NCBI GenBank assembly: GCA_051313645.2
Contig: JBNRSN020000001.1
Coordinates: 595,448,001-595,512,000, forward strand
Source of the DNA: Centroscyllium fabricii
Taxonomy: Eukaryota
Reading direction: 5' to 3'
DNA length: 64,000 nt
Both the position numbers and the translations under genes were made by a program. Numbering within the stretch: the stretch's first letter is position 1; every line of letters starts with the position of its first letter. This document shows positions 9,815-64,000 of the stretch, in pieces. Below the pieces are notes generated by a model. It worked only from the letters and a program-made list of their open reading frames with translations. It was not told the DNA's origin and made no database searches.

Positions 9815-10086
9815 GATGCAAACTTAGTGAATAAAATTGATGCCTAATCAATAACTTAGGAGACTAGAAGTTGAGGAGTGAACTAAAGGCTTTTATTCAC
9901 TAAGACATGAGCATGCCCATGCTAGTCGACTGATCCCAGAATGATTGGGGGAGGGAGACAGTCGCCTTTATACCTGGGTCCGAGGAGGAGGAGCCACAGG
10001 TGGGGTCAGCACGGGCATGCCCGGACAAGCTATACATGAAAGACTATGTACAAACAGTGGAGGTCACACACACAATGCATACAGAT

Positions 10087-11993: not shown

Positions 11994-12209
11994 TAATGAT
12001 CTAAACCAAGGAACATTCCTAGATTAACAAGTTAAATTATTGCAAACTGTCTCTATGTTTTATGTTTACACTGAATCTTACTTTAACATTCAGAGGGTTA
12101 CAAGAGAAAAGAGCACCAAGCCTGTCACAGAACTAGGGTCCAAACTTATCGCACAAGGGCAAATCATACTAAAATTAATGGTAGTAATGAAAATATTTAG
12201 TGGTCTTAC

Positions 12210-12786: not shown

Positions 12787-13973
12787 CTGTATGTGTTCAA
12801 AGAGACACCACAATTAGATTTGTAAGAACAACTTCAAACTATAGCAGGTACAATTTGACTGTTATATAAATGAGAGGACAGAAACAAATACAAATAATAA
12901 CATGATACCACATCTATGCACATCCAAGCCCTGGTCGGTAAGGCTCAGTAGAACACAGTATGTGTCCACTGGGCAATCGCCAAATTAATACTTTACAGGT
13001 TACCAATTCAAAAGCAAATTTAATTGGATCTGGAATTTTCCCATTGGTCTCAACATAATTCATTTTTCTGCTCAACATATCTCTTAAAGGATGTATCTTG
13101 GCTTTCAAACTCCATCTTCTCCTATATACTGTAGAGCTAAAATATTTCTGCAAATACAGGGTACCTTTCATTGCTATGTACAATCTACCTTTTGTTCTTT
13201 TACCCGTTTTAATACTCTCATTAGTTATCAATGGGTGTTTGCTTAAAATGACTGCCAGAGCCTTCAAGCTAAATTTGACCTCCTTATACAGCCATGGTGC
13301 TTAGTGTTGCTATTTTCCCCTTTTATTTTATTGGGATATACTTCCTTTCCTTCAATGCATCTTGGAAAAAAAATCAATTATTCTCCAGCTTTAATTTTCT
13401 TTTATTGTTTCTCACTTAATGCTCCCTAAAGCTGTTCTCACAACTATGCTCCATGTGGATGGGTTATTTTTGGCCTTAGCCTTTCATTACAATAACAAAC
13501 TTAACCATAAAATGATTACTATAACTGCAATTTTTATCCACTTGGAGGTCACTGGTCAGTTCTGTTAAGAGTCCAAGATTAACACTTCCTGTACAATTGC
13601 ATCAGCAGGTTACGATCTCCTGATCATTTTGAGAGGCTAACCAATAGCAAATTAATAATTGGCCAAATGCTAACTAAAATGACTAATTCCCAACAATCCT
13701 GCCCTGCCTCCTATATTATTAATATTCTATATACCTTAGGTTTCACTGCGTCTATTTTCTGCTGGCAGCCTAGTTTCACGACGTCACCAACAGCAAAGCA
13801 CGATGGGCACTGGGTTACCAAATTAACAGTGCAGAATGACAGGCACTCTTGTTGACGGGACCCTTGAGAAATGCTGGCATTTTTTATGTGAAATGTCACT
13901 GTAGTGGCAGCTACAGAACAGCTAGTTACTAAAAGAGAAACCAGTCTTCAAATTCATGCAGAGCCATGGTGGA

Positions 13974-14189: not shown

Positions 14190-17100
14190 TGTGGGGAACT
14201 GAAGGTTTCCCACTTTTAAATATCGAAGAATGAAAGGTAAACAGCGGAGTAAACTGGAACATGTCTTTATTCAACAACTACACGAACTAACTCTTTGTGG
14301 CGCGAAACGGCAGGAAACCACGTGACCCGTGAGTGACAGTGCTATGGGCCTATTAGGTTCCGTGCCCGTTGATTCTATGGGCCAATGTGGCAACGGGGGC
14401 GGGACCAACCTACCAAAGAGGATTCTGTCTTAAAGCGAGGTCGGCTGTCCCAGGCTACTGCCTTAAAGGGAGACAGGCGTGCCTCCCTGGGTAGTTACGC
14501 TATACACGCCCCCCCCAGAATCCTCAAACACGTTGTATGTTAACTGCCGAGGAGGGACGACGCGGCGACTGGAGCGGGTGTGGTAAGGCGCACGTGCGGA
14601 GGGCGAGACAAGAGGGTTGTCAACTGGACTGGGCGACCACGGTGCTGCAGGGGCCGGGGGAGGGGAGGCAGGCGGATCGCCCGCGGGACTGAAAGACGAT
14701 GGTGCCGTAGGTGCCCGAGGAGGCGAGGTTGGAGGCGAGGCGGGGAGAGGAGCCGCACCCGGGGGCGTGACAACTAAGGTGTCAACCGGGGGCTCGCGAA
14801 AGAAAAAGACGGGCTCCTGATTAGGAGCGGGGAAATGATGCTCCTGTGAGGTGGGGTCCAAATGAGCCGGTTTGAGGCGGTCAATGGACACACAGTCCTG
14901 CCGGCCCCCGACCTCAAGGAGAAAAAACTTGTCCCCAGCCTGCTAAACTCGAAAAGGGCCCGTGTACGGTGCCTGTAAAGGCGATCTGTGGGCGTCACGA
15001 CACAGAAAGACAAATTGAGCCCGGTGGAGCTCGGTGGGGACATGAGACGGTTGCGCGCCATGCCGAGAGGTAGGCAACAGGAGGAAACAAAGCGCTGCGT
15101 CATTGTGCTGGGCAAGTTGCTCCCTGGCGGACCAGTGTTCAGTGGTGGAGGGGAGAAATTCCCCAGGGATGCGTAGGGGCTGTCCAAAAACAAGTTCGGC
15201 AGACAAAGTGCCGAGGTCGTCTTTGGGGGGCCGAGCCCAGGCCAAGCAAGACCCAAGGGAGCCTGTCTAGCCAATTAGCATCGACCAGGCTAGCCCTGAG
15301 CGAGGCCTTGAGGGCGCGGTGAAAGCGTTCACAAATGCCGTTGGCCTGCGGGTGATATGCAGTGGTGCGGTGCACCTGTGTGCCCAAGTTGGTGGCCACG
15401 GCATTCCAGAGCTGGGAAGTGAATTGCGGGCCCCTGTCAGAAGTAATGTCCGACGGTACGCCGAACTGGGCTACCCAAGAGAAAATGAAGGCACTTGCCA
15501 CGTCGGCTGCCGTGGTGGAGGCTAAGGGGACAACCTCTGCCCACCTCGTAGTGCGGTCGCCGACCAAAGAAGATGGGTAAAACCCTGCGACGGGGGCAAT
15601 GGGCCGACCAGGTCCACGTGGACATGGTCGAAGCGCCGTTCAGGTACAGAAAAATCGTGCAAAGGGGCCTTAGTGTGTTTATGAACGTTGGCGCGCTGAC
15701 AGGCTTGACAAGTGTTGGTCCAGTCACGCACATTCTTGTGTAACCCGGGCCAAACAAATGTGGTTGACATGAGCTTCTGTGAAGCTCGCATACCAGGGTG
15801 TGAGAGACCGTGGACCAAGTCAAAAATGCGTCTACGCCAGGAGGCGGGTACTAAGGGCGTAGGTGTGGGCACGGACACGTGTCACAAAAGTGTGGTGCCT
15901 GCAGTGTGAAAATGGACATCAGCTAACTTGAGGCTGGTGGATGCGGAACGGAGAACTTGCAGATCCGCGTCCTGCCGCTGAACATGTGCCATTTCGGCGT
16001 AGTCGACGTGCACGTGCACTGCCTGTAGGGAAGGACGTGAGAGGCAGTCTGCCACGACATTGGCCTTGCCGGACACGTGGCGGATATCAGTGGTGAATTC
16101 TGACACGAAGTTTAAATGACGCTGTTGGCGTCCGGACCAAAGCTCTGCAACCTTGGACATCGCGCAAGTGAGGGGCTTATGGTCTACATAGGCTGTAAAA
16201 GGACGACCCAAAGCAGAAATGGCGCACAGCGAGAAAAAGAGCTAACAGTTCCCTGTCAAAGGTACTGTATGAGAGTTCATTTTTCCTCAACTGCCGGCTA
16301 AAAAAGGCTAGGGGCTGCCAACAACCGTCCACCCACTGCTGCTGAACTGCGCCAATTGCGTAATTGGAGGCATCCATTGTCAGTGATAGTGGGGCGTCAG
16401 GAACGGGGTGAACCAGTAAGGTGGCCTCCAACAGGGCCGCCTTAGCCAGGCAGAAAGCCTGAACCATGTCGGCGGACCACTGGAGAGGATCCTTCCCGGT
16501 CTTACCCCTAGTAGCCTCATAAAGGGGGCGCGCGATGGAGGCTGCCCGGGGAATAAACCTGTGGTAGAAATTAACCATCCCCAGGAATTCCTGGAGGGAC
16601 TTAACCACCTTAGGTTGGGGGAAATCCGCAACCGCCTGTACCTTGGAGCGCATGGGAGATATGGTGTCCCAGGAAATCGATTGTAGGGAGGCCGAATTGG
16701 CACTTGGTAGGTTTGACAATCAGGCCATGCTGGGCCAATCGTTGGAAGAGAGAGCGCAGGTGTAGCACATGTTGAGACTCGCTCGAGCTTGCAATTAAAA
16801 TATCGTCCAGGTATACAAACAAAAAATCTAAGTCTCTCAACACAGTGTCCATCAGTCGCTGAAAAGCTTGCGCTGCGTTCTTCAATCCAAAAGGCATGCG
16901 TAGAAACTCGTACAGTCCAAATGGTGTAATGACAGCGGTTTTTTGGACGTCATCAGGGTGGACGGGAACTTGGTGGTACCCTCGCACGAGGTCAACCTTG
17001 CAAAAAATGGTGGTGCCAGCCAAACGGGCCGAGAAATCCTGGATGTGGGGTACTGGGTACCTGTCCGGTGTGGTAGCCTCATTGAGGCGTTGATAGTCCC

Positions 17101-18825
17101 CGCACGGTCGCCAACGTCCTCCGGGCTTGGGGACAATATGGAGCGGGGATGACCACGGGCTGTTGGAGGGCCTAACGATGCCCAACTTCTGCATTGCCGA
17201 AAATTCCTGTTTGGCTGCGGCCAACTTGGTAGGGTCGAGGCATCTGGCTCGTGCGAAGACTGGCAGACCGGTGGTCGAAATATGGTGCAGAACGCCGTGC
17301 TTAGTAGCTCCTTCTGAGAAAGTTGGTTGATGATGACGGGAAATTGGGCCAGGAGGCTTGTGTACTTATCGCTGGGTGGCGGGGAGCAGGAGCTCACGAG
17401 CGGGCCATCGCTACTCTGACAGGGGAGTGATGCAAAAGTGGATGCATCCATCAGGCGCTTGCCGCGGACGTCGACCAATAGGCCGTGTGCACAGAGGAAG
17501 TCCGCCCCCAATAATGGGTGTGCAACATTTGCAATAACGAAGTCCCATGTGAAGCGTTGTTCGCCTAGCATAATTTCTGCCCGCATCTTGCCGAACGTGG
17601 CGATGGACGTGCCGTTGACTGCAACGAGGGGTGGGTCCGTGTGGCCAGACCGTCGTTCGGTACGCGTTTCCGGTAAAATGCTAAGTTGGGCCCCAGTGTC
17701 GCAGAGAAATTTGCGATTTGATAAAACGTCGGAGACGTAGAGTAGGCGGCCTACTGTGCCTATGGCATTAGCAGCAGCTGGACCCTGGCGACGTTGCGGT
17801 TTGGGAGAGCGTGGTTTAGGTCGGCTCTCCTTGTTGTCGAAGGCACAGGGTGGTCGACAGCGGTTGGCCTTCGCGCCGAAGCGCGCGTGATAGCAGAGCT
17901 CTGGTTGCGGGCGGGGCGTTGGCTGCTGTGCAGGAGTTGAGGGCTTCGCGGTGGCACACTTGGAGGGCGCGCATTGACATACCCGATCAGCTGCGGCTGC
18001 CAGTTCTGCATAGTCATCGGTGTGCACGTTTGCCAATGCAGATTGCACGGGTTGGGGCAGGCGGCGGACGAAGAGTGCCCGGAATAAAGGGCAGTTTCTG
18101 TGGTCGCCCAGTAGGGCGAGCATACGGTTCATCAACCGCGTGGGCGAAGAATCGCCTAACATCGGGAGTTCCAGTAGTTGTCGGGCCCGAATGGCCTCAG
18201 GTAGGTCGTGGGCCTGCAACAAATGTTTTTTTAAGGGCGGCGTACCTGTCAGCTGCTGGCGGGTCTCAAAGCAGGTCGATGATGTCGGCAGCCACATGAC
18301 TCGGTAGGGCCGCAACGGTGAGAAAGTATTGATCCTCATCGTCCGCGATGTGTTTAATCCGAAACTGCGCCTCTGTATTGACGAACCAGGCTGTTGCCTG
18401 GTTTTCCCAAAAGGTTGGGAGGCTTGCATTCGACGGCCGTTCTTGTTGCCTGGCCGCGGAGCGCGCGTTCTGGGCAGCTACTTCTTCATCTGCCATTCGG
18501 GGTCACTAATTGTGGGGAACTGAAGGTTTCCCACTTTTAAATATCGAAGAATGAGAGGTAAACAGCGGAGTAAACTGGAAGTCTTTATTCATCAACAACT
18601 ACACGAACTAACTCTTTGTGGCGCGAAATGGCAGGAAACCATGTGACCCGTGAGTGACAGCGCTAAGGGCCAATCAGGTTCCGTGCCCGTTGATTCTATG
18701 GGCCAATGTGGCAACGGGGGCGGGACCAACCTACCAAAGAGGATTCTGTCTTAAAGCGAGGTCGGCTGTCCCAGGCTACTGCCTTAAAGGGAGGCAGGCG
18801 TGCCTCCCTGGGTAGTTACGCTACA
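14190..18825 (-). mobile_element. Gypsy LTR retrotransposon B (CsRn1/Kabuki-like), full length; 5' LTR 18511-18825, 3' LTR 14190-14504; TSD CCTT
   Basis: 315-bp direct repeats; CCTT on both flanks. tRNA-Trp-type PBS T(A)GTGACCCCGA follows the 5' LTR; PPT is tggggggggcgtg. Gag LPTFW..AWF..EAQF and a CHCC-type box CYHARFGAKANRCRPPC. Confidence 0.95.
14540..18496 (-). pseudogene. gag-pol of Gypsy B, multiple frameshifts
   Basis: LCDTGA protease; VDLVRGYHQ and YLDD RT; MDASNY RNase H; HGLSHPG..CQAC, SDRGPQF and NGICER integrase, spread across about 8 ORF fragments. Confidence 0.9.
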
Positions 18826-28165: not shown

Positions 28166-29188
28166 CTTGCAGAGGAAGAGACTTGGAGAGGTCAGGTGAG
28201 AAACTCATTTCAGTGCATCTCACCTCTGCCCTGTAGCTAGAGTGTTGATATAGCTAATCCAGTTAAGATTTTGGACAATGTTGATGGTGGGAGACACTGC
28301 AATGGTGGTCCTGTTGAAGGTCGGAGCAGGGGGAGTGATTGAGCCTTTTCCTGTCGGAGATGGTCATTGCCCAGCATTTATCCAGCGTGAATGTTACCTG
28401 CCATTTGTCAATCTAAGCCCGAATGCTGTGTGTGTTCTGCTGTAGTTTGTCATGGGCTGTATCACTACAGGAAGAGTTATGAATGGTCACTGAACACAGA
28501 GTCAGCATACTGCTGATCGTATAACAGAGGTAAGGTTATGAAGGTAATGAAGCAGCTGAAGATCGTTGGGCTGATCTCATATCACTAATAAAAAGCCTGA
28601 AATTCAATGCAATATAAAGAAATGTAACCTATTCAATCTCCTCAGTCACAGGTAGTTATTGAGTGATGGTTTTCAGCTGTATGTTGTCTTTTGTGTGGTC
28701 AGCATTTTTAGAGCAGTCAGCGTTTCAGAGTTTTGTAGGTTGGCACTTGTTGGAAAGATACCCCTCATAAAAAGGAAGTATTTCGTAGAAAGACAACTTC
28801 TAGCACATATATCAATATCTACACATTGATTAGCATTTGCAACAGAACACTGAAGCAACTGAAGAACAGTCATAAACAATGAATGGGGATCTGTCAACTT
28901 CAGCCTTTTAAGCGATTAAGTGAGTGCTGTGGTAATCGTGTAAATACCACTGTAAATAGTTGATGGCACCTTGGTATTGTATTGTAGGCCAGGTCAGCCA
29001 CACCCCTAACTCCTCCCCTCAGGTCGGAGCATATAGGTGAGGGCTGCCCTGCTCCCGCTCATTCTTCATCTTGACCTCATCAGGAGACCAGCTCCATTGT
29101 TAGTTAATAAAAGCCTGTAGTTTAGGTAACTACTCGTCTTTGCATTTTAATTGACGATACGTCAATTTTATTAACTAAATTTTAAAAC

Positions 29189-32100
29189 ATGGAGAGTAAC
29201 GCAGTGAAACTGGATCGCCTCGACATAAATCCTCAGGCACCCGATGCTGCTAACGACTTCGAACACTGGTTTGGCCTGGTCGAGGCCTACATGAAGGCCA
29301 TAAAGGCTACGAGTGATGAGGACAAACTCCAGGTACTCTCATCACGGATCAGCGGCCGGGTGTACTCTTTTATCCGCAGCCTCAACACTTACGAGGAAGC
29401 GGCCAAGAAATTAAAGGACTGCTGCATGCGGCCGGCCCACTCGGTCTATGCCAGGCATGTTCTGGCGACCAGAAGACAACGACTCGGTGAGTCAAATGAA
29501 CAGTTTCTACTAGCGCTCCAAGCCCTCGCACGGGCCTGCGACTGCCATGCAAGGACAGCGGAGGAAGAGGCGAACCTCCTAATCAGAGATGCCTATGTGG
29601 CTGGACGCAGGTCCAGCCAGGCCCGCCAGCGGCTGCTGGAGCAGGACACACTGTCGCTTGAGTCCGCGATAACGCTTTCTAATGCGGTGGACGGAGCGCT
29701 TCGAAAGCTGGAGGCGGACGGAGATCACGGCTCCCACTGTACCCCTGACCCCTGGGCGACACAGCGACAGGCCGAGACCCCCATGATGGCAGCGGCAACT
29801 GCGAAGACACTGGCGGGGCACAGATGCTATTTCTGCGGCCAAGGAAAGCACCCGCGGGCGCACTGCCCTGCGAAGAATGCGACCTGCGCGTGGTGCGCGA
29901 AGAAGGGGCACTACGCGAAGGTGTGCAAATCCAGCCCAGCCTCCACCTCCAGACCCAACAGCGCGGCCTGCGAGAACAGCGATGCCACTCCCATCGCTCC
30001 AGGTACGGTGTTGCAGCGTGACCCAGCAGCGGTCAGCCGGGGGTAAATCGCGGGCGCCTCAAGCCCCTTTAATTGTACGGCGGAGGACGCCCGCGCGCGC
30101 GGCACAGGCGCTGCCACAATAAACGCGACCGCGACCGGCCATGTGCGACCCCCCGGCACCGCCATCTTGTCCACCGCGGTTGGCCGCGTGCGAACCACGG
30201 GCGCCGCCATCTTATCCACTGCGGTCGGCCATGTGCGACCCCCAGGCGCCGCCATCTTGTCCACCGCGGTCGGCTGCGTGCGAACCACGGGCACCGCCAC
30301 CTTATCCACAGCGGTCGGCCATGTGCGACCCCCCAGCGCCGCCATCTTGTCCGCCGCAGTCGGCTGTGTGCGAACCACGGGCGCCGCCATCTTATCCACA
30401 GCGGTCGGCCGCGTGCGAACCACGGGTGCCGCCATCTTATCCACAGTGGTCGGCCGCGTGCGAACCACGGGCGCTGCCATCTTGTCCACAGCAGCCGGAC
30501 ACGTGCGAATCGCCAGCGTCGCCATCTTCTGAGCGGCCATCTTGCCAACTGCCCCAGCCGGGGCCCCAGATAACGGAGGGCCCCCACTCACACTTCGGCC
30601 TCAGCCACCGTCGATCAGGCTAGGTCGCACACCTTGTCCAACTCCATGATGGGGATTAAGGTGGACGGGCACGCCACTAGCTGCCTGTTCGACACCGGTA
30701 GCACAGAGAGCTTCATACATCCCGACACAGTGCGGCGCTACGCACTGCAGACCCAGCCCACGCACTACCAAGTCTCCCTTGCCTCAAAGTCTCACACGGC
30801 GGACGTCACTGGCTACTGCAGCGTCACGCTCACGATCAGCGACCGCATTTACCGCAACTTTAAGTTGTACGTACTCCAGCAGCTGTGCGCCCCAGTCTTA
30901 CTGGGACTGGATTTCCAGTGTCAGCTGAAGAGCGTGACGATGGATTTCAGTGGAACCCTGGCCCCCCTCACCGTCAGTAGCCGGGACAATCGCAACTTAA
31001 CGCGGAGCTCAACTTGTGGCCTGTCCACATAAAAAGTCGACCCCCCCCTCACTGTTCGCCAATCTCGACCCTAAATGCAAGCCCATTGCTACCAAAAGTC
31101 GGCGTTACAGTGCAGGGGACCGGGCGTTCATCAGGTCGGAGGTCGAGCGCATGCTGAAAGAAGGGATCATTGAGGCCAGCACCAGCCCCTGATGGGCCCA
31201 GGTCGTAGTGGTTAAGACGGGTGAGAAACTGCGCATGGTCATCGACTATAGCCAGACGATTAACCGCTCCACCGGGCTCGATGCCTACCCCCTCCCCAGC
31301 ATCTCGGATATGGTAAACCAGATCGCCCAGTACAAGGTCTTTTCCACAATCGACCTCAAGTCGGCGTATCACCAACTCCCCATCCGGAAATCCGACCGCC
31401 AGTACACCGCCTTCGAGGCGAACGTCCGGCTCTACCACTTCCTCCGGGTCCCCTTCAGTGTGACCAACAGGGTGTCGGTGTTCTAGAGGGAGATGGACCA
31501 CATGGTTGACCAGAACGGGTTGCAGGCCACCTTCCCCATCTTGGACAACGTGACCATCTGCAGCCAGGACCAGCAGGACCACGATGCCAACCTCGCCAAA
31601 TTCCTGCACACGGCGAAACGGCTGGACCTAACGTACAATAAAGAGAAGTGTGTGTTTAGTACGGATCGGCTCGCTATCCTCGGATACGTGGTGGAAAACG
31701 GGGTCCTCGGCCCCGACCCACAGCGTATGCGCCCCTTGCAAGAGCTGCCTTTACCTCACAACCCCAAAGCCCTGAGGAGATGACTAGGGTTCTTTTCTTA
31801 TTATGCGCAATGGGTCCCCCAGTACGCGGATAAGGCCAGACCTCTCCTCAAGGCCGACGTCTTCCCCCTCTCGGAAGAAGCCCAAACAGCATTCGCTCGG
31901 ATCAAGGAAGACATCATCAAGGCGACCATGCACGCCGTTGATGAGTCCATTCCCTTCCAGGTGGAGAGTGACGCTTCGGACTTTGCCCTTGCCACCACCC
32001 TGAACCAAGCAGGCAGGCCCGTAACGTTTTTCTCCCGGACCAGACAGGGACCCGAAACTCGCCACTCAGCGGTGGAAAAGGAGGCCCAGGCCATTGTGGA

Positions 32101-33442
32101 GGCAGTGCGCTACTGGCGTCAGTACCTGGCCGATAAGCGTTTTACCCTGCTCACTGACCAACGGTCGGTGGCGTTTATGTTTAATAATAAACAACGGGGT
32201 AAGATCAAGAATGATAAGATCCTTCGGTGGCGGATCGAACTCTCGACTTACGAGTACGACATTCTTTACCGCCCAGGCAAGCTCAACGAACCCCCGGACG
32301 CACTGTTCAGGGGAACGTGCACCAGCGCCCAGCTTGACCGGCTGAAGGCCCTCCACGATCGCCTCTGCCACCCGGGTGTCACCAGACTCGCCCACTTCGT
32401 CAAATCCCGTAGCCTCCCCATCTCCATCACGGAGATAAAGGCTATGACCAAAGAGTGCCCTGTCTGTGCCGAGTGCAAACCCCAATTCTACAGGCCAGAC
32501 ACGGCGCACGTCATCAAGGCCACCCGCCCCTTTGAACGCCTGAGCGTGGACTTCAAAGGCCCCCTCCCCTCCACTGACCGCAACTCGTATTTCCTTACGG
32601 TCATAGACGAGTTCTCACGCTTCCCCTTTGCCTTCCCCTGCCCAGACATGACGAGCGCAACGGTGATCAAACACTTCACCACGCTGTTCGCCATTTTCGG
32701 TCTCCCCAGCTACATCCATAGCGACCGGGGATCGTCGTTCATGAGCGACGAACTGCGTCAGTTCCTGCTTCAGAAAGGGGTTGCCTCAAGCAGAACGACC
32801 AGTTACAACCCCCGGGGGAACGGCCAGGTAGAAAGGGAGAACGGGACCATCTGGAAGGCGGTCAACCTGGGCCTGAAGTCCAGAAGCCTTCCAGTTTCCT
32901 GTTGGCAGGAGGTCCTCCCAGACGTGCTCCATGCCATCCGCTCTCTGTTGTGTGCCGCCACTAACTCAACACCTCATGACCTGTTGTTTTCCTTTCCCAG
33001 GAAGTCGACTTCGGGGACAGCACTCCCGCTGTGGCTCACAGCGCAGGGGCCAGTATTGCTTAGAAAGCACATCCGCAGCCACAAGACCGACCCCCTGGTG
33101 GAACGGGTGCACCTGCTCCACGCCAACCCGCAATATGCTTACGTGGCATTCCCGGACGGGCGCGAGGATACAGTCTCGATCAGGGACCTGGAGCCCGCTG
33201 GGAGCACTAGGGCAGAACCCCCGGTCGAGCCTCAGCCCGACCAGCCACCACCCACCGAATACTGGCCCCCATATATACACACACCGGGGCCCTCAACACC
33301 ACCGATCGATGACCCGGGATCGGACACCGCACCGCTGGCAAAGAGCTCGATCCCGGCCCTGCAACCGGCACCACCATTGCCGGCACCCCGGCGGTCCCCC
33401 AGGCAGACGCGACCGCCAGAGAGGCTAATAACGCAATGCTAA
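29189..33442 (+). pseudogene. gag-pol of Gypsy C, several nonsense mutations
   Basis: LFDTGS, IDLKSAYHQ, ILDN, ESDAS, HDRLCH..CPVC, DFKGP and SDRG motifs. Stops near 31030, 31190, 31484 and 31781. Confidence 0.9.
30134..30545 (+). repeat. 45-bp tandem array (about 9 units, partly alternating as a 90-bp unit) between gag and protease of Gypsy C
   Basis: GCCATCTT recurs at 30161, 30206, 30251, (30296), 30341, 30386, 30431, 30476 and 30521. Confidence 0.92.
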
Positions 33443-37064: not shown

Positions 37065-39944
37065 TAGTCATGGTTGATCTTCGACCTCAAATCCACTTTC
37101 CTGCCCGATCCCCATATCCCTCGATTCCTTTCGAGTACACTCTGCCATCCCCTGCAGAATGGAGGACAGATAGATTTCTAAGCTCATTAACGACTGTTAC
37201 TACCAAGGTGGTCAATTCACCATTCTTCTCATCGTTTTAGTGATATGAAAATCTGAAAGATACCCCAAGATACATATCTCTGGCTTTATGGAGATCATTA
37301 ATTCCAAGACCTATGACAGACACCTCAATGCATCTTGCTAAAATGGTGACATATTTTGCCTACCACAGGTTGAAGAGCTACCTAAATCTCCAGCATTATA
37401 GTACCTGTATTGGTATGTCCCACTTGAAAACAAACTCTAAAGGTATGAGGTATCCATTACAATAGTTTTAATTAATCTAAATCCGACACTCCTGAAGGCA
37501 CAGTATGTACTGAGCTAATTTATCTGCTATCCAGATCTCGCAGTTAATCCTGCCTTTTGGCAACTACTCCATTCTTCTGGGGCTTCATGAAGATTAGTCA
37601 CAATGTATAGATACAGATAAAATCATTGAAATTATAGCACAAAAAGGGGCCATTAAGCCCACAGAACCTGTCCAGAATGTTAAATGGCTATCTACCCATA
37701 TCCTATTTCCTTTCCGGTTCTCAATATCCTTCTGTGTTCTTCCTTTTCAAATACTTATCCAATTCCATTTTAAATATTGTAATCCCTGCCTCAATATCCA
37801 TTTGTAGGAAGACATTTATATTATAATCATAGAATCATTGAATGATACAGCACAGAACAAGGTCAGTTGGCCCATCATGCATATACTGGCTCTTTGGTAG
37901 AGCTATCCTGCTAGTCCCACTCCCCTGCTCTTTCCCCATAGTCCTGTATTTTTTTCCCTCCAAGTATTTATGCAATTCCCTTCTGAAAGTTACTATTGAG
38001 TCTGCTTCCACCACCCTTTCAGGCATTGCATTCCAGATCACAATAATTCGCTGTGTTTCCTTGTGTCACCTCTTGTTATTTTGCCAATCACCTTAAATCT
38101 GTGTCCTGTGGTTACTGCCCCTTCTGCCACTGGAAACAGTTTCTCCTTATTTATTTTTTATCAAAAGTACCAGGACCAGTGTCCTGGTGAATCGAATAAC
38201 TAGGGCGGTGGGCTTTAAACTGATGAAGGGGGCGGGGGGTTGCTGGTGATAGGATTCAGGAAAGGATAAATTCAAAAGCAGCAAGAGAAATGGCAAGGGT
38301 GTAGAGCAGAGTGGCGATTGGAGTAAAAGTAAGCAGAATGGGCCAGGACAGGACAGAGCTTAACAAAGGTAATAGGGCATTAGAAGATAAGGTGACGTCG
38401 GGAGAAAAACAGAAAAAAGTTAAAGCTAAAGGCATTATATCTGAATGCACAAAGCATTCGCAACAAAATAGATGAATAGCATAGACAGAAATAAATATGT
38501 TTGATCTAATAGCCATTACGGAGGCCTGGTTGCAAAGCGACCAAGATTGGGAACTAAATGTTCCAGGATACTTGACTTTTAGAAGAGATAGGCAAAATAG
38601 AAAAGGGGTGAGGGTAGCCCTGATAATAAAGGATGGGATAAAAACAGTAGAGATAAAGGATCTTAGCTCGGAAAATCAAGATTTTCCTTCACTCAATCAC
38701 TTTGGGTGGAGCGAAGAAACAACAAAGGGCAGAAAACACTGGTGGGAGCAGTTTATAGGCCCCTTAACAGTAGTTGTAGTGTCGGGCAGAGTACACATCA
38801 GGAAATTAGAGATGCTGCAACAAGGGTAATACAGTAATCATGGGGGACTTTCATCTTCACATAGACTGGGCAAACCAAATTTGCAGTAATAGTGTGGAGG
38901 ACGAATTCATGGAATGCATTCAAGATAGTTTTCTAGATCAGTATGTTAAGAAAACAACTAGGGAACAGGATATTTTAGATCCAATACCATGCAATGAGAC
39001 AGGGTTTAATAACCTTGTAGTAAAGGAACCTCTGGGGAAGAGTGATCATATAGAATTTTATATTGAGTGTGAGAGTTATTTATCTGAAACTAGGTTCTTA
39101 AATCTGAACAAAACAAACAACATGAGTATGAGGGGTGAGTTGGCCAAGGTAGATTGGGAAAGCAATGGCAAATATTTAAATAATTAATTCATAATTTGCA
39201 ACAAATATATATCCCCCAAGCAATAAAAACCCCATGGGATTAGCAGTCCAACCATTGCTAACAAAAGAAGTTAAAGATAGTATCAGATTAAAGAAGAGGC
39301 TTATAATGTTGCCAAAGATAGTACGCCTGAGGATTGGAAGGATTATAGAATTCAGCATGACCAAGGAATTGATAAAGAAAGAGAATGAGAGAGTAAATTA
39401 GCAAGAAACATAAAAACAGATGTGTATAAAGGAAGAGATTAGCACAAGTAAACGTGTGTCCCTTAGAGTCACAGTCAGGAGAAATTATAATGGAGAATAA
39501 GGAAATGGCAAAGACATTAAACGAATACTTTGCATCTGTCTTCATGGTAGAAGACACAAATAACATTTCAGAAATAGAACTTAATGAAATTAATATTAGT
39601 AAAGAAATAGTACTGGAGAAATGAATGGGACTAAAAGTCGACAAATCCCCATGACACCTAATGGCCTACATCCTAGGATATTAAAAGAGGTAGCTACAGA
39701 GATAGTGGATGCATTGGTTTTGATCTTTCAGAATTCCCTAGATTCCAGAACAGTCCCCATGGATTAGAAGGTAGCAAACATAACCCCGCTATTCAAGAAA
39801 GGAGGGAGAGAGAAAATAGGGAGCTATAGACCAGTTAGCCGGATATCAGCGGTACATAAAATGCTAGAATCTATTAGGGATGCGGTAACAGGGCACTTAG
39901 AAAATCATAATGCGATTGGGCAAAGACAACACTGATTTATGAAA

Positions 39945-47667: not shown

Positions 47668-48622
47668 ATGGGTGAGCAGGTGATGTGTTACTGCTGTGAG
47701 ATGTGGGAGTTCGTGGACACCATTGATGCTCGCGGTGACTACATTTGCAGCAAGTGTTTGTTGCTCGAGGAACTCCGGCTTCGTGTTGATGAGCTGCAGT
47801 CCGAGCTTCAGACACTGCGACACATCAGGGAGGGGGCGAGTTACCTGGACTTTGTGTTGCAGGAGATAGCCACACTAAATAGATTAATTAACTTAAATGT
47901 AGATCATGGCCAGGGACAGGATGGTGTGACTATAAGTGAGGCAGGTACGGGAATCCAGGAGGTAGTGTTGGAGGAGCCGCAGACCTTGCTCTTGTCCAAC
48001 AGGTTTGAGGCTCTTACTCCCTGTGAGGGCGGGAGCGGGGACTGTGGAGAGGATGAGCAACCTGGCCACAGCACCGTGGAGCGGGGGGCCATTCAAGAGG
48101 GGGGAGTTAATAGAAATGTTGTAGTGGTAGGGGACAGTATCATCAAGGGGATAGATAGGGTTCTATGCAACCGAGAGCGGGAGTCCCGAAGGCTGTGTTG
48201 CCTGCCCGGTGCCAGGGTTAAGGACATCTCTTCTGGGCTGGAGAGAAACTTGCAGTGGGAGGGTGAGGATCCAGTTGTCCTGGTACATGTTGGTACCAAC
48301 GACATAGATAAGACAAGGAAGAAGGTTCTGTTACAGGAGTATGAGCAGCTAGGGGTCAAACTAAAAAACAGAACCTCAAGGGTAATAATATCTGGGTTAT
48401 TACCTGAGCCACGAGCGAATTTGGCTAGGGTAAATAAAATTAGGGAGTTAAATGCGTGGCTCAAAGACTGGTGTGGGAGAATTGGGTTTTGCTTCTTGGG
48501 ACACTGGCACCAGTACTGGGACAGGAGAGAACTGTTTCGGCGGGACGGGCTTCACCTGAACCGGGCTGGGACCAGTGTCCTGGCGAATCGTATAACTAAG
48601 GCTGTAGAGAGGGCTTTAAAAC
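47668..48622 (+). CDS. CR1 ORF1p: zinc finger, leucine zipper and SGNH esterase domain (reads on into ORF2 in this copy)
   Basis: CYCC..CSKC; LEELRLRVDELQSELQTL; GDSI, LPGA, HVGTND and DGLH blocks. Confidence 0.9.
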
Positions 48623-51611
48623 GAATTAGTGGGGGGGAGGTTTCTAGAGGGCAAATAAATAAAATGACACTGGAGAAGGTAATGGACATAGGTAACAACG
48701 GGGCAATTAACAGACAGTGTGTGTCAGGAAAGGAAAGAATGTATGGAGATAAAGGTAAAGTTGAAAAAAGGGAAAAAGCAGGAATGAAGTGTCAGACATA
48801 TTTGAAAGTCCTTTATTTGAATGCACGTAGTATTCGTAATAAAATGGACGAGTTGACGGCACAAATAGTTACATATGGGTATGATCTTGTGGCAGTTACG
48901 GAGACATGGCTACAGGGTGACCAGGACTGGGAATTAAACATACAAGGGTATTTAACGATTAGGAGGGACAAGCGGGAAGGAAGGGGAGGTGGGGTGGCTA
49001 TGTTAGTAAGGCAAGGTATCACGGCAATACAGCGGAATGATATTGGCTCAGAGGATCAAGATGGTGAAACAGTTTGGGTGGAAATAAGAAATAATAAAGG
49101 GAAAAAAACACTGGTGGGCGTAGTCTATAGGCCTCCAGACAGTTGTAACACAGTTGGTCGGAGTATAAATCAGGAAATAGTTGGGGCTTGTAATAAGGGA
49201 ACAGCTATAATTATGGGCGATTTTACTTTCATATTGACTGGACAAATCAAGTTGGACAGGGCAGCCTTGAGGAAGAGTTCATTGAGTGTATTAGGGATGG
49301 GTTCCTTGAACAGTACGTAACTGAACCGACCAGGGGGCAAGCAATCTTGGATCTGGTCCTGTGTAATGAGACAGGATTAATTAAAAATGTCCCAGTAAAG
49401 GATCCCCTTGGAAAGAGTGACCATAACATGGTCGAATTCCAAATTCAATTAGAGGGTGAGAGGGTTGGATCTCAAACAAGGGTACTGAGCTTAAATAAAG
49501 GAGACTATGATGGTATGAGAGCAGAATTGATTAAGGTGGACTGGGGAAACAGATTAAAGGGTAAGACGGTACATGATCAGTGGTGTGTATTCAAGGAGTT
49601 ATTTTATAACTTTCAAGAAAAATATATTCCACTGAGGAATAAGGGGTGTAAAAGAAAAAACAACTATCCGTGGCTAAGTAAAGTAATAAAGGAGAGTATC
49701 CGACTAAAAACAAGGTTATATAAGGTAGCTAAATCTAGTGGGAAGATAGAAGATAGGGAAGCTTTTAAATGTCAGCAAAAGATAACAAAAAGATTGATTA
49801 GGAAAGGGAAGATAGATTATGAAAGTAAATTAGCAAAAAATATAAAAACAGATAGCAAGAGTTTCTATAGTTACATAAAAAGAAAACGGGTGGCTAAAGT
49901 AAATGTTGGTCCTTTAGAGGATGAGACCGGGAAATTAATGGTAGGAGACATGGAGATGGCAAAAGCGCTGAACAAATATTTTGTATCAGTCTTTACAGTG
50001 GAGGACACTCAAAATATCCCATCATTGGATAAACAGGTGGCTCTAGGGGGGGAGGAGCTAATTACAATTAAAGTAACTAAGGAGGTGGTACTCGGGAAAA
50101 TGATGGGACTTAAGGAGGATAAATCCCCTGGACCTGATGGCTTACATCCTAGGGTCTTGAAGGAAGTGGCGGTAGGGATTGTGGATGCGTTGGTAATAAT
50201 TTTTCAAAACTCACTGGACTCGGCAAAGGTTCCGGCAGATTGGAAAACTGCTAACGTAACGCCCTTATTTAAAAAGGGTAATAGACAGAAGGCTGGAAAT
50301 TATAGACCAGTTAGCCTAACATCTGTGGTTGGCAAAATGTTAGAATCTATTATTAAGGAAACAGTAACAGGGCATTTGGATAAACACCATTTAATAGGAC
50401 AAAGTCAGCATGGTTTTACAAAGGGGAAGTCATGTTTGACAAATTTGCTAGAGTTCTTTGAGGACATAAAATATAGGGTGGATAAAGGGGAACCAGTGGA
50501 TGTGGTGTATTTGGACTTCCAAAAGGCATTTGACAAGGTGCCCCACAGAAGATTATTACTCAAGATAAAAAATCACGGGGTTGGGGGTAATATTCTGGCA
50601 TGGGTGGAGGATTGGCTTTCTAACAGAAAACAGAGAGTTGGGATAAATGGTTCGTTCTCAGACTGGCAGTCAGTCATTAGTGGTGTCCCGCAAGGGTCGG
50701 TGCTGGGACCCCAACTCTTTACAATCTATATTAACGATTTGGAAGAAGGGACCAAGTGCAACATATCAAAGTTTGCGGATGACACAAAGATGGGAGGGAG
50801 GGTGATGAATGAGGAGGACATTAAAAACCTGCAAAAGGACACAGAGAGGCTAAGTGAGTGGGCAGAGATTTGGCAGATGGAGTATAATACTGGAAAATGT
50901 GAAGTTATGCACTTTGGCAGGAAAAATAATAGAGCGAGTTATTATCTAAATGGAAAGGAACAGGAAAGTACTTCAGTGCAAAGGGATCTGGGGGTCCTGG
51001 TGCAGGAAACACAAAAAGTTAATATGCAGTTGCAGCAGGTGGTAAGGAAGGCCAACGGAATGTTGACTTTTATTGCTAAGGGGATTGAGTATAAAAGCAG
51101 GGAGGTCTTGCTGCAGTTGTACAGGGTATTGGTGAGACCACACCTGGAATACTGCGTGCAGTTCTGGTGTCCCTATTTAAGAAAGGACATACTTGCTCTC
51201 GAGGCAGTGCAGAGAAGGTTCACTAGGTTAATTCCGGGGATGAGGGGGCTAACATATGACGAGAGGCTGAGTAGATTGGGCCTCTACTCATTGGAGTTTA
51301 GAAGAATGAGAGGCGATCTTATTGAAACATATAAGATTGTGAGAGGGCTTGATCGGGTGGATGCGGTGAGGATGTTCCCAATGGTGGGTGAGACTAGGAC
51401 TAGGGGGCATAATCTTAAAATAAGGGGCTGCCATTTCAAAACTGAGATGAGGGGGAACTTCTTTACTCAGAGGGTGGTGGGGCTGTGGAATTTGCTGCCC
51501 CAGAGAGCTGTGGAAGCTACTACGTTGAATAAATTTAAAACTGAGATAGACAGTTTCCTGGAATTAAAGGAAATTAGGGGTTATGGTGAGCGGGCTGGTA
51601 AGTGGACGTGA
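48623..51611 (+). CDS. CR1 ORF2p: APE endonuclease plus reverse transcriptase; single 1-nt deletion near 49224
   Basis: LNARS, VTETW, YRPP, MGDF and SDH (EN); KSPGPDG, YRPVSL, QHGF, DFQKAFD, PQGS and FADD (RT). No nonsense codons apart from the frameshift. Confidence 0.9.
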
Positions 51612-53269: not shown

Positions 53270-54673
53270 AAATGTTGCCTCCCTGGTGCAAGGGTCAAGG
53301 ATGTCTCGGAGCGGGTGCAGAGCATTCTGGAGGGGGAGGGTGAACAGCCAGTTGTCGTGGTACATGTAGGTACCAACGATGTAGGTAAAAAAAGGGAGGA
53401 GGTCCTACAAGCTGAATTTAGGGAGTTAGGAGATAAATTAAAAAGTAGGACCTCCAATGTAGTAATCTCTGGATTGCTACCAGTGCCACGAGCTAATAAG
53501 AATAGAGAGAGCAGGATAGTTAGGCTAAATACGTGGCTTAAGCAGTGGTGCAAGAGGGAGGGATTTAAATTCCTGAGGCATTGGAACCAGTTCTGGGAGA
53601 GGTCGGACCTGTACCAAAGGGACGGTCTGCACTTGAACGGAGATGGAAAGGTGTCCTCGGGGTAATATTTACTAAAGCGGTTCGGGAGGTTTTAAACTAG
53701 TATGGCAGGGGGGTGGGAACCTAGGTAGTGGAAAAGAGGGAGGTCATAGGAAGCCAGAAATAAATGGTAGGAAGGTGAGAAGCAATAAGCAAGGGAGAGA
53801 AACACAAAGGGCCAAACTAATTCATAATAGTGTGATCAAAACAAGCCTAAAGGCTTTGTATCTTAATGCAAGAAGCATTAGGAACAAGGTGGATGAACTA
53901 GCTGTTGAAATAGGGGTAAGCAAATATGAGTTGATTGGAATTACGGAAACATGGCTGCAGGGTGGGCAAGGCTGGGAACTCAACATCCTGGGGTATACAA
54001 CATTCAGAAAGGATCGGCACAAAAGAAAGGGAGGTGGGGTGGCATTGCTGGTGAAAGAGGGGATAAATGCGATTGAAAGGAAGGATATTAACTCAGATGA
54101 TATGGAATCTATATGGGTAGAACTAAGAAATAGTAAAGGGCGGAAAACATTAGTGGGAGTTATATACAGGCCTCCAAATAGTAATATGGAGGTGGGGGAC
54201 AGCATAAAAATGGAAATTAGAGAAGCTTGCAATAAGGGCACAGCTGTCGTCATGGGCGACTTTAATCTACATATTGATTGGACTAGCCAAATTAGTAAAA
54301 ATACTGAGGAGGAGGAATTCCTAGAATGTCTACGGGACGGGTATCTGGACCAATATGTTGAGGAACCAACTCGGGATCAGGCCATCTTAGACTGGGTATT
54401 GTGCAATGAGAAGGGACTAATTAGCAATCTAGTTGTACGAGGCCCCTTACATCAGTAGTGGGCAAAATGCTTGAGTCCATTATCAAGGATGTAATCTCGG
54501 AGCATTTGACAATTAGGGATGAGTTCGGACAGAGTCAACATGGATTTACAAAAGGTAAATCGTGCTTGACTAATCTACTGGAATTATTTTGAGGATGTAA
54601 CTGGTAGAATACATGAGGGAGAACCAGTGGATGTGGTGTATATGGACTTTCAGAAGGCTTTCTATAAGGTCCC
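53270..54673 (+). mobile_element. CR1 fragment: ORF1 esterase, ORF1/ORF2 junction, EN and part of RT (internal deletion near 54448)
   Basis: ORFs 53198..53665 and 53775..54458. Confidence 0.88.
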
Positions 54674-56907
54674 TACTAGTCACTGTTTGCCACTCGGAAA
54701 AAGACCCGTTAATTCTTACTCTCTGCTTTCTGTCCGCCAACCAGTTCTCTATCCAAGTCAATACCTTGCCCCCAATCCCATGCCCCTTAACTTTGCACGC
54801 TAATCTGTTACGCGGGACCTTATCGAAAGTCCAAATAAACCACATCCACTGGTGCACCCTTATCTATTTTACCAGTTACATCCTCAAAAAGTTCCAGTAG
54901 ATTAGTCAAGCACGATTTACCTTATGTAAATCCATTTTGACTTTGTCCGATCCGTTCACTGTTTTCCAAGTGCTCTGCTATTACATCTTTTATAATGGAC
55001 TCTAGCATTTTCCCCATTACCGATGTCAGGCTTACCAGTCTGTAATTCCCCGTTTTCTCTACCACCTTTTTTTGAATAGTGGGGTAATATTAGCTACCCT
55101 GCAATCCATGGGAACTGTTCGAGAGTCAATTGAATTTTGGAAGATGGCCAACAATGCATCTACTATTTCTAGGGCCACTTCCTTAAGTACCCTACAATGT
55201 AGATTATCAGGCCCGGGGGATTTATCGGCCTTCAATTGCATCAATTTCCAGAACACCATTTCCCTACAAATACCGATTTCATTCAGTTCCTCCCTCTCTT
55301 TAGTCCCTATGTTCCCCAACATCTCCGGGAGGTTGTTTTTGTCCTCCTTTGTGAAGACAGAACCAAAGTATGTATTTAATTGGTCTGCCATTTCTTTGTT
55401 CCCCATAATAAATCCCCCTGATTCTGACTGCAAGGGACCTACGCTTGACTTCACCAATCCTTTTCTCTTCACATATCTATAGAAGCTTTTACAGTCAGTT
55501 TTTATGTTCCCTGCAAGCTTATGCTCAATCTATTTTCCCCCTCTTAATTAATCCCTTTGTCTTCCTTTGCTGAATCCTAAACTGCTCCCAATCCTCAGAT
55601 TTGCTGCATTTTCTGGCCAATTTATATGTACTCTCCTTGGATCTTATGCTAGCCCTAATTTCCCTCGTTAGCCATGGTTGAGTCACCTTTTTTGTTTTAT
55701 TGTTATGCCAAACAGGGATGAACAAATTCTGTAGTTCATCCATGTGATCTTTATATGTTTGCCATTGCCTATCCAGTCAACCCTTTAAGTAACATTCCCC
55801 AATCCATCCTACCCAACTCACGCCTCATACCATCGTAGTTTCCTTTATTTAAATTCAGGACCCTAGTCTCTGAGTCAACTCCTTCACTCTCCATCTTAAT
55901 AAAGAATTCTACCATATTATGATTGCTCCTCCTCAAGGGGCCTCGCACAAGATTGCTAATTATTCCTTACCCAGTCTAAGATGGCCTGATCTCTAGTTGG
56001 TTCCTCGACATATTGGTCCAGGAAACCATCCCCTGTACACTCCAGGAATTCCTCCTCCACAATCTTTTTACTAATTTGGTTAGCCCAATCTATATGTTGA
56101 TTAAAGTCACCCATGATAACTGCTGTGCCCTTATTGCACGCGTCACTAATTTCCCATTTAATGCCATCCCCAACCTCAGCATTACTGTTTGGGGGTCTGT
56201 ATACAACCCTCACTAAGGTTTTCTGCCCCATGGTATTTATCAGCTCTACCCATACAGATTCCACATCATCAGAGCTAATATCCTTCCTTACAATTGTGTA
56301 AATCCCCTCTTTAACCAGCAATGCTACCCCACCTCCTTTTCCTTTTTGCCTGTCTTTCCTGAACATTGAATACCCTGGATGTTGAGTTCCCAGCCTTGGT
56401 CACCCTGGAGCCATGTCTCTGTAATCCCAATCATATCATACCCATTTACATCTATTCGTACAGCTAATTCATCCACCTTATTACGAATGCTCCTCGCATT
56501 AAGACACAAAGCCTTCAGGCTTGTTTTTTTAACACTTAGACCTTTTAGAATTATTATTTACTATGGCCAAGTTTGATTTAAACCCTTGATTTCTCTGACT
56601 GCCACTTTTGCTTTTCTCCTTCCTGTCTTCTGCTTCTATCCTATCCTTGTTTCCCTTTCCTCTGTCTCCCTGCACAAGTTCCCAACCTCATGCCATTTTA
56701 GTTTAAACCCTCCCCAACAGCACTAGGAAACACTCCCCTTAGGTCCTGCCCAGGTGCAAACCGTCCTGTTTGTACTGGTCCCACCTCCCCCAGAACTGGT
56801 TCCAATGTCCCAGGAATTTGAATCCCTTCCCCTTGCACCTTTCCTCTAGCCACGTATTCATCTGAAATATCCTTCTATTTCTACTCTGACTAGCACGTGG
56901 CACTGGT
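54674..56907 (-). mobile_element. CR1 fragment: ORF1 end, EN and RT start
   Basis: DGLHL, LNARS, ITETW, MGDF and KSPGPD motifs in minus-strand ORFs. Confidence 0.88.
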
Positions 56908-61633: not shown

Positions 61634-62254
61634 GTACATTGCAGGAAGTCCAGAAAAGGATGAAGAAACTAGATCAGCAATACAAAGAAAGAATAAGAAA
61701 TGCAGAGCTTTTTCTGCAACTGGAGACAGAGCAAGTGGAATGGAATTATATTAAAGAGAAAAAGGGCAGCAGTGAAGGAATTTGAAGATAAAAAGATTGA
61801 GTTTAAAAAAAACCTGATTGCCGAATTAGAAGAGAAGAAAAAGATGATTGAGAATGAGAGACTAACAATGGAACTCACTGGAGATTCTATGGAGGTGAAG
61901 CCAATTATGACCAGGAAGTTGAGGAGGAGACCTAATGATCCCGTTCCAATTCCAGACAAAAGACAAAAACCTGCACCTGCGCAGCTAAATTACTTGTTAA
62001 CAGAGGAACAGATTATGGAGGATCTGCGAACTTTTAATAACCTCAAATCTCCAAAAACACCAGCATTTCCTTCTTCTCCTGAGCATCCTCCCAGCACGCC
62101 AGCTGAATCGCCAGCACAGAGATATGAAGCACGATTAGAAGATGGAAAGTTGTATTATGATAAGAGATGGTATCACAAAAGTCAGGCTACCAATCTGGAA
62201 TCCAAGGAGAATACGAAGATCAGCTGTGTAATTAGCTCAGTTGGAACAAATGAG
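61634..62254 (+). pseudogene. SUDS3: Processed (intronless) SUDS3 fragment, +1 frameshift in the A-run near 61760
   Basis: [36 protein letters not shown]...[10 protein letters not shown]...[32 protein letters not shown]...[17 protein letters not shown]...[11 protein letters not shown]. Confidence 0.9.
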
Positions 62255-62573
62255 GATGCCAGTGATGATGAAAGCAAAGGAGAGCTGCTTTCACTGCGAA
62301 ATATAGAACGACTGCATAAAAAACCTAAATCAGATAAAGAAACTCGACTAGTAACAGCAATGGCTGGGAGATCTGAGAGAAATGAATTTGTGAGAAAGAG
62401 AAACAAGCTGAATCCATATGCAAGCACAACCAACCAGGACAAGAAAAAGAAAAAGAATTTTATGATGATGAGATACAGTCGTAATGTGAGATCAAAAGGC
62501 AAACGTTCCTTCAGAGACAAGCAGACTGCTCTGCGGGATGCTCCCTTGAAAAGAAAAACAGTTGATGAAATGA
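62255..62573 (+). pseudogene. SDAD1: Processed SDAD1 C-terminal fragment fused in frame to SUDS3
   Basis: [30 protein letters not shown]...[44 protein letters not shown] matches the SDA1 C-terminus as recalled. Confidence 0.88.
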
Positions 62574-64000
62574 ATCCATGAACTTTAGGACATTTACGGA
62601 ATTTTATTTTTCCCAATCAAAGTAAGAAGCTTTAGAATTGGAGTCTGATAGTAATGAAGAATCGCTCAGATCCTCTCCTCAAAGAGAAAGGGAGTTAACC
62701 AAACCGATAACAGCACTTAAAAACTAAACAGTACAGTAACTAGGACGGAGAGGTCATTCGAGATTGAGTTCCACAAAAGGGAAGAAATATAATGGCATCA
62801 GAAGACTACCAGGAAGAGTATGCTTTTTGTTTCAATGAAGGACGCTGGTTCTTTTCAGTTCCGTGACTCAGTTTTATGGTAAGAAGTTTCCAGCGCGCGC
62901 ATGCGCTGTTTTTTGACAGTTGGAGGTGAATTTTCTGGAACTACGGTGGAAGCTTTCAGCTGTTTTAGTATCGCGCGCGCCGGTGCGGTTTGACAGTTGG
63001 TGGTCTGCTCTTAGAGATAACACCTCAGATCCCAGCTACTCGACCCTCCGACATGGTAGCCTTCGCCTCACTGTCACAGATTCCTTTGATAAAAAGTGAA
63101 TAATTAAAAAGATAAAAAGAAATCGTTTGTGGATAAATTAAGAAAAAATACAGCAATTGTTTTAAGAAGTCATCAAAATCCTCCTGTGCTGTCGGCGGGA
63201 CCCTGGACGGATCCACTACTTGGACATCCCTCACCTTCCCATCAGAGGACAAAGATTTTCCTGATTTTGGACGTCTGGTACTCTTTTAAATTTTAAGAAA
63301 AAAAGAACTTTCTTTTTGATTCCATTTCCTTTATTGGATTAACATTTCTCCATTCGATTATTACCCTGGATCCGAGCAGTGAACTTAAAAGACTTTGGAA
63401 AGAACTGTGATTTTTTTTAACTTGATTATTATATTGTATGTTTTTTTCCCCCAAAACCGAGATCTCATTTTATTTTGGGTATTCATTTTTCTGGCCAGTA
63501 TGATTTACAAATGTAATGTGTAAACAGCTCTATATATATTGAAATTGGACCTTTGTTACAAAACCAGATTAGATACAAGAGAGAGCACAAACGAAAGACA
63601 TATTTTAAAATAAATACCTTTAGTAACCCAAACTTGTTAATGGGCATTTCTTGGGGTGGATGTGTGATATAGTGGATGCATGTACCAGTCTCCTATGAAC
63701 CTAGATTACATATGGCAGTTCACATTGCAGCATAAGGCAGCGGCTACCGTATTACACCAGCTTCATGCTACCGCTACTAAAAGGCAGAAGGTGGGATCTG
63801 TGTTGAACTAAAGAAAAGGTCCTTGAATGAGTGCTGGCAACGTGGCAGCTTCCTAAAGCTGCTCCTCTCCCTGTAACGAGCACACCCCCTGACATTGCGC
63901 CGCAGCTGCCGAGTGTGATGCCACTATGTCAGTCTTTGCCCCAGCTTTCAGTTCAGTGAGTCTCAGACTTATTTTTCAATAAATCTGTGGCGGCTGATGC

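Follow-up and report, generated by a model that had tools for sequence, protein, structure and literature searches.

CR1 elements in the window

The DNA analyzed here, referred to as the window, is a stretch of 64,000 nucleotides from Centroscyllium fabricii (contig JBNRSN020000001.1), and all positions below are those of the window. It contains CR1 LINEs of the esterase type, in which ORF1 encodes a GDSL/SGNH esterase (Pfam PF13472) and ORF2 an APE endonuclease and a reverse transcriptase (PF03372/PF14529, PF00078). The features on which the analysis is built are the following.

38214..38225, plus strand: heptamer followed by TGATG in an older family that mostly has TAATG; stop and start overlap, with the ATG in the ORF2 frame
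47668..51611, plus strand: full-length copy of a fused lineage, ORF1 running in frame into the endonuclease; private frameshift near 49200-49320
48615..48622, plus strand: heptamer plus one extra base (TTTAAAAC), a hard-coded -1 shift (30/30 closest siblings in one frame; 1,175 genome-wide)
53273..53700, plus strand: C-terminal half of CR1 ORF1, GDSL/SGNH esterase (Pfam Lipase_GDSL_2, E=1.7e-13; extent from blastn against the sibling L002, 99%)
53673..53675, plus strand: -1-frame stop TAA, located exactly 6 codons 5′ of the slip site, which shuts the -1 frame upstream
53691..53697, plus strand: slippery heptamer T_TTA_AAC, phased as X_XXY_YYZ (41,221 matches in the genome behind the DGLHL anchor)
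53691..54448, plus strand: ORF2 N-terminus in the -1 frame, a 56-codon linker and then an APE-type endonuclease (Pfam Exo_endo_phos, E=4.3e-08; the copy ends at 54448)
53698..53700, plus strand: ORF1 stop TAG, directly 3′ of the heptamer
53708..53713, plus strand: G6 run, 11 nt past the heptamer, a candidate stimulator (G run in 15/15 representatives)
56698..56707, minus strand: heptamer followed by TAA in a third CR1 family; endonuclease 201 nt downstream in the net -1 frame

CR1 LINEs end in a 3′ hairpin and a short tandem-repeat tail, with no poly(A), and this arrangement was seen at the 3′ ends that were printed and folded. The 3′ UTR stem exists in three sequence versions (GGAGCAGG/CCTGCTCC, GTGCGGA/TCCGCAC and a third in L267-L269), which surround a common inner hairpin (L252-L304). 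Judged by eye, the junctions are similar to those in rows that bear the CR1 label in the supplement of PMC13343379, and the nearest proteins to ORF1 are labelled as cartilaginous fish.

Elsewhere in the window, LTR-retrotransposon-type insertions are located at 6344-9823, 14463-18477 and 29186-33442, with protease, RT, RNase H and integrase domains in two ORFs (Pfam) and a third ORF without a Pfam match. An open frame on the minus strand (12090-12833) carries the end of a Rap_GAP domain (Pfam) and is probably an exon of a host gene whose introns hold these elements. On the plus strand at 61697-62581, a 294-aa open frame resembles a chimera made of processed gene fragments; SDA1_C is matched at its end, and its start may be related to an Sds3/BRMS1-like protein.

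The ORF1-ORF2 junction

The copy at 53273-54448 is a dead, 5′-truncated fragment that retains half an esterase ORF1 and the start of the endonuclease (Pfam). The loss of a single nucleotide near 53650, private to this copy and about 40 nt 5′ of the heptamer, disrupts its ORF1 frame, and the ORF1 phase therefore has to be taken from homology. In the siblings, which are 97-99% identical, ORF1 closes with Leu-Asn-stop and the endonuclease follows in the -1 frame; among the 12 that were parsed (L002-L014/L018), Leu-Asn was found at the ORF1 end in 11 and the endonuclease in the -1 frame in 10. The phase that the initial annotation had assigned by homology is thereby confirmed, as are the positions it gave for the heptamer (53691-53697, followed by TAG) and for the TAA at 53673. 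It had also described the -1 frame as open from the heptamer into the endonuclease, with an ATG only inside that domain. This description holds, since the frame runs without a stop from the heptamer via YLNARS (53859), ETW, YRPP and GDFN, and its first ATG is located at 54102, 81 codons past YLNARS and also beyond ETW. TTTAAAC occurs 16 times on the two strands of the window; the next codon is a stop in three of the 16, and all three are CR1 ORF1 ends.

The initial annotation further proposed that the heptamer precedes the ORF1 stop in two other diverged copies, each with a different stop codon. The heptamer is indeed present in both (38214-38220; 56707-56701 on the minus strand), but the diversity of stop codons is not sustained: the TGA at 38221 is a private mutation of the 38.2-kb copy, whose parsed siblings read TAATG in 23 of 29 cases and TGATG in one, and the argument from three stop codons is therefore unsupported. 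Two features had been overlooked, namely the ATG at 38223-38225, which overlaps the stop and is in the ORF2 frame, and the fourth CR1 copy (47668-51611, plus strand), in which ORF1 and ORF2 share one frame. In the minus-strand copy (56707-56701), compensating private indels lie between the heptamer and the endonuclease motif, and the distance of 201 nt from the one to the other agrees with the earlier reading of -1 as the net endonuclease frame.

Conservation of the heptamer

Genome-wide counts were anchored on the esterase motif DGLHL at its fixed spacing from the ORF1 stop in the 7.2-Gb genome. A T-R-R pattern at the expected ORF1 stop, which also admits TGG, was found at 45,815 anchored places as compared to 678 in a reversed-pattern control, and only ORF1s with the DGLHL anchor and that spacing enter these numbers. 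The exact string T-TTA-AAC-stop was present at 41,221 of the 45,815 ends. A CTN Leu codon replaced TTA in 53 anchored ends, scattered over families, and the first T of the heptamer was absent from 448. Synonymous variants of the heptamer amount to about 1% per site, which is the level of decay after insertion, and the test of the heptamer at synonymous sites suggested by the initial annotation thus revealed no free variation. A candidate subfamily with G_UUA_AAC was rejected as erosion of the upstream G run (18 T and 12 G among 30 copies, with variable run length).

The codons were compared in 12 natural ORF1 tails (protein identity 38-86%), which remained of 18 cluster representatives once five variant-selected and one redundant tail had been dropped. 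Seven amino acids (A, D, G, H, N, S, V) occur immediately before Leu-Asn, yet the codon for this residue ends in T in 12/12 tails. Leu is encoded by TTA in all 12, whereas each of the six other columns with an invariant Leu uses two to five codons, and Asn is AAC in 12/12. The conservation at the ORF1 end acts at the nucleotide level. Both these tails and the consensus matches described below were partly chosen by the heptamer and only the anchored count of 45,815 is blind to it; because several copies were heptamer-selected, the codon test leans on that count for the assurance that no family was missed. Two codons before Leu (53688-53690 in the window), the third base is G in 12/12 tails although five amino acids occur at this position, and the signal may therefore reach upstream of the heptamer.

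Frame and start of ORF2

The endonuclease motif was found in 28 of the first 30 genome matches. These copies had not been selected for frame, and 26 of the 28 have the motif in the -1 frame, with eight linker lengths. Among 21 hand-picked open representatives the linker has 14 lengths, from 99 to 267 nt. Six of the 21 have no Met before the endonuclease, and the other 15 have a Met at scattered positions from 7 to 88. The -1 frame holds no upstream ATG in any of the 21, nor is there an ORF2-frame ATG within 10 nt of the ORF1 stop, a feature seen only in the old 38.2-kb UAAUG family, which is not among the 21. In a 34-copy group to which the family of the 53.7-kb copy belongs, the first majority ATG is located 109 codons into the endonuclease; in a 10-copy family it lies 17 codons into it. 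In 11 of 12 clusters, a majority stop closes the -1 frame six codons 5′ of the site. Both the -1 frame of ORF2 and the lack of a conserved ATG before the endonuclease, for which the initial annotation had recommended a check, are thus seen across families.

No L1-type non-coding spacer is present between the ORF1 stop and an ORF2 AUG; the ORF2 frame is open from the heptamer. No amino-acid constraint on the linker was detected (shared changes 21:7, private changes 41:14), nor was an inherited stop seen in it. In L154, L166, L174 and L210, a given ORF1 end is joined to different linkers and a given linker to different ORF1 ends, a swapping of parts among families that suggests recombination near the heptamer.

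These data bear on termination-reinitiation, by which ribosomes would resume in the -1 frame, either on an AUG that overlaps the stop or on a non-AUG codon, and produce a separate ORF2p. Such a route has been described for SART1, where it was shown, and for L1, where it was proposed (PMC5972666), and the L1 ORF2 start tolerates any sense codon (PMC1965478). The UAAUG stop-start in 23/29 copies of one CR1 family fits this model, as does the failure to find a frameshift-stimulating structure in 15 representatives, but the same family also retains the heptamer in 28/29 copies. We consider reinitiation unlikely, given that it needs neither a T before TTA, nor TTA over CTN, nor AAC over AAT, all of which are invariant. 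Moreover, several families have their only nearby AUG in the +1 frame, and the fused lineage stayed active although it lacks an ORF1 stop.

A lineage with ORF1 and ORF2 in one frame

The insertion of one base in the heptamer was identified in 1,175 copies genome-wide, and 98 of 100 among the matches listed belong to one lineage. ORF1 and ORF2 are in one frame in all 30 closest siblings of the copy at 47668-51611, and L363 has an unbroken ORF of 1,314 aa with esterase, endonuclease and RT domains (Pfam), which matches the trans-frame product predicted for a -1 frameshift. At the fused junction, the T insert gives L-N-L and the A insert L-K-L, which are the residues that a slip would be expected to produce, depending on whether the A site is occupied. 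In a tree of 61 rows, a few of which represent one copy fetched twice, unfused elements lead to A-insert copies and these to nested T-insert subfamilies, with a median identity to L363 of 93.7, 96.8 and 98.2%, respectively. The fused lineage is the younger one; it replaced its parent and kept spreading.

Changes in ORF2 shared by at least three of 55 fused copies were 36 nonsynonymous and 49 synonymous, as compared to 321 and 101 private changes (p=3e-9), and no shared stop in ORF2 was found among the 55. The purifying selection on ORF2 and the lack of a shared stop therefore indicate that the fused source elements were autonomous. The ORF1 part of the fused copies is without such selection (37:15 vs. 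121:59), whereas ORF1 in four unfused families is under selection (57:54 vs. 160:75, p=0.003; difference between fused and unfused p=0.02), which lends modest support to the idea that free ORF1p is less important after the fusion of the two ORFs. As this lineage shows, the ORF1-ORF2 fusion is a working form. A viable fusion tells us that the product works; it does not establish that the unfused elements make it. Contigs from three other sources that span the fused junction have one base fewer and hence represent the unfused form (one run being ambiguous), but such contigs cannot show expression and were given no weight here.

In the T-insert fused copies (48615-48630 in the window; L031-L060, L231-L250), the site still has the X_XXY_YYZ pattern, as U_UUA_AAU, and the -1 frame hits a TAG two codons on, such that a slip would yield a near-normal ORF1p, although this may be incidental.

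The extra base also needs to be considered with respect to a signal that acts at the level of transcription or otherwise outside of the ribosome, such as polymerase slippage or a protein-binding, promoter or splice element. We regard this as very improbable. LINE proteins mostly copy their own RNA, as established for L1, and with such a cis preference copies inserted after polymerase slippage should carry the extra base; 41,221 do not, and although the fused lineage started with one extra A in the A run, nearly all of the extra-base copies among the matches listed trace to that single lineage. The flank is G-rich without a pyrimidine tract, and in several families an AUG would be missing from the shorter transcript as well. 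Two published dogfish consensus rows (SquAca_CR1-3 and SquAca_CR1-18, PMC13343379 supplement) carry the same 10-mer, the heptamer plus TAR, in the 5′ UTR, as a non-ribosomal motif might. A role as a 5′ UTR element was nevertheless rejected, as the motif was found in the 5′ region of only 4/68 copies here, at scattered positions.

Sequences downstream of the heptamer

Canonical eukaryotic frameshift sites have a structure 5-9 nt downstream (PMC3542737). The initial annotation had proposed folding of the downstream sequence, and no stable hairpin was found in 15 representatives: the predicted folding of the 80 nt 3′ of the stop does not surpass that of shuffled sequences (z from -1.39 to +1.44) with a program that models hairpins, without pseudoknots. 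A run of 5-7 G starts 9-11 nt past the heptamer in 15/15 representatives, and a quadruplex motif is two-tier in 12/15 and three-tier in 2/15. Engineered quadruplexes can stimulate -1 shifting (PMC3919603). The G run is the most likely candidate helper and could act either by binding a protein or by forming a small quadruplex.

We also examined whether the G run pairs with the 3′ tip of the element and rejected this, since shuffled junctions did equally well in 12-68% of trials. In most families the 3′ tip ranked within the top 1-3% of windows; the two families with different tips were exceptions, and cognate pairs were not preferred. Because neither a local structure nor pairing with the 3′ tip is supported, the adjacent stop, acting through a pause, and the G run are left as candidates for the stimulator.

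The signal in other organisms

A Leu-Asn C-terminus was found in 17/24 ORF1 homologs in the protein database. One teleost protein labelled Paramormyrops (P0016), 39% identical to ORF1, also ends with Leu-Asn. A search of the protein database for longer natural ORF1-ORF2 fusion proteins gave no scoring match, which is weak evidence. A search of the PDB with the endonuclease gave no match, and the catalytic residues are therefore named from motifs only.

Sixteen loci were recovered in a search of metagenomes, of which only L311 is an element of the esterase-CR1 kind; the other 15 were rejected as different esterases that lack the site. L311 is a distant element with 38-47% ORF1 identity, and it has the heptamer, TAG, G6 and an open -1 frame, no Met before the endonuclease and an upstream -1 stop, TGA, at the same place. 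No relatives were found in viral contigs.

The published supplement of PMC13343379 comprises 1,004 consensus rows, of which we used the first 400 nt each. The heptamer followed by a stop gave 23 matches in these rough rows, of which 18 were at ORF1 ends, as judged by eye, in 12 species: alligator, crocodile, bearded dragon, bullfrog, coelacanth, bowfin, halosaur, elephant shark, two rays and two sharks. None of the junctions visible in the span covered came from a bird or turtle. When the search was repeated with six synonymous variants plus TAG, the same rows yielded 13 matches, none of them at an ORF1 end.

Discussion

How the second ORF of LINEs is translated is a long-standing question that, to our knowledge, has been answered for few elements, all of which use reinitiation. 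Our findings make it likely that these CR1 LINEs instead rely on programmed -1 frameshifting at U_UUA_AAC to produce an ORF1-ORF2 fusion. The fusion proposed by the initial annotation is supported in that there is no conserved ATG, no free variation in the heptamer and a fused lineage that works. Frameshifting is the simplest account because it explains together the invariant X_XXY_YYZ pattern, the fixed -1 phase, the dispensable AUG and the working fused derivative. Against it speak the failure to find a stable local structure, the in-frame linker Met in 15/21 representatives and the one UAAUG family.

In the mechanism that we envisage, the ribosome would pause with the Asn-tRNA on AAC and the stop codon next in line, the Leu- and Asn-tRNAs would re-pair on UUU and AAA, and CUA would be the next codon after the slip. 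The output would be mostly ORF1p, with a predicted minority of an ORF1-ORF2 fusion of about 1,300 aa.

That there is no signal at all, and that the heptamer is a by-product of Leu-Asn-stop being kept for the ORF1 protein or for two-frame coding, is a reading that is largely refuted and to which we give hardly any credence, since the silent positions are invariant in the 12 tails, although a protein constraint would also give the frequent Leu-Asn ends of the ORF1 homologs, and since two-frame coding would allow AAT and is at odds with a -1 frame that is shut just upstream and has no upstream ATG.

The proposed frameshift in CR1 is similar in its layout to those in coronavirus ORF1a/1b and retroviral gag-pol, where an X_XXY_YYZ site likewise ends a structural-type first ORF and the polymerase ORF is in the -1 frame, and U_UUA_AAC is among the most shift-prone heptamers (PMC5009743; PMC3542737). 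In contrast to the viral sites, no stem-loop or pseudoknot was found 5-9 nt on at the CR1 junction, where a G run lies instead, the 0-frame stop is immediate, and the host is a non-LTR retrotransposon without a protease to cut the fusion. According to a figure legend in a review, a -1 frameshift is needed for ORF2 in TRE5-A and TRE3-A of Dictyostelium (PMC5911963). These are APE-type non-LTR elements like CR1 but differ in clade, host and ORF1 type, and the slippery sequence is not given in the accessible part of that article. SART1, with UAAUG, and mammalian L1, with a spacer and unconventional reinitiation, have a bicistronic LINE RNA, as does CR1, in which one family has UAAUG. They yield a separate ORF2p, however, whereas most CR1 families have neither a stop-start overlap nor a spacer, and their frames overlap at the heptamer. 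The ORFs of R1 overlap in the -1 or -2 frame (PMC2718515). In bacterial systems of the dnaX type, altering a single nucleotide can exchange the roles of the two products, so that the other one depends on the shift (Atkins review); for the T-insert fused CR1 elements, such a reversal of roles is a mere possibility raised by the sequence, and the stop may be incidental.

The canonical esterase CR1 of vertebrates (PMC13343379) has the same architecture, and its consensus rows share the ORF1 end. The words frameshift, fusion, fused, overlap, start codon and translation have no occurrence in the main text of that study, and its accessible sections describe ORF1(+) and ORF1(-) forms but no fused form. 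Nor is CR1 mentioned in the accessible part of PMC5009743. A search of the full-text literature, the scope of which did not extend to the classic 1997-2001 chicken and turtle papers, found no paper that proposed frameshifting for CR1. The signal is real and deeply conserved; the mechanism proposed is a known one, in a host for which no description of it was found, its layout is unusual, and the fused lineage serves as a natural control.

In most vertebrates, CR1 is the chief group of retrotransposons (PMC13343379). On balance, we lean towards the broader hypothesis that the dominant LINE of non-mammalian vertebrates makes a Gag-Pol-like RT fusion by a -1 frameshift that predates the split between sharks and bony vertebrates, using a structure-free signal composed of the heptamer, the adjacent stop, the G run and an upstream guard stop. 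One lineage in the genome examined here would then have hard-wired the fusion, outgrown its parent and relaxed the selection on ORF1, and it may make free ORF1p by the reverse slip.

If the CR1 enzyme is such a fusion, the annotated starts of CR1 ORF2 are wrong, and the active CR1 protein would have a zinc finger, a coiled coil and an esterase ahead of the endonuclease, such that attempts to reconstitute or engineer CR1 would require the fusion. The fused lineage offers a ready natural control. Tens of thousands of slippery sites per genome would also join the short list of -1 frameshifts in vertebrates, with a signal that seems to function without the usual RNA structure.
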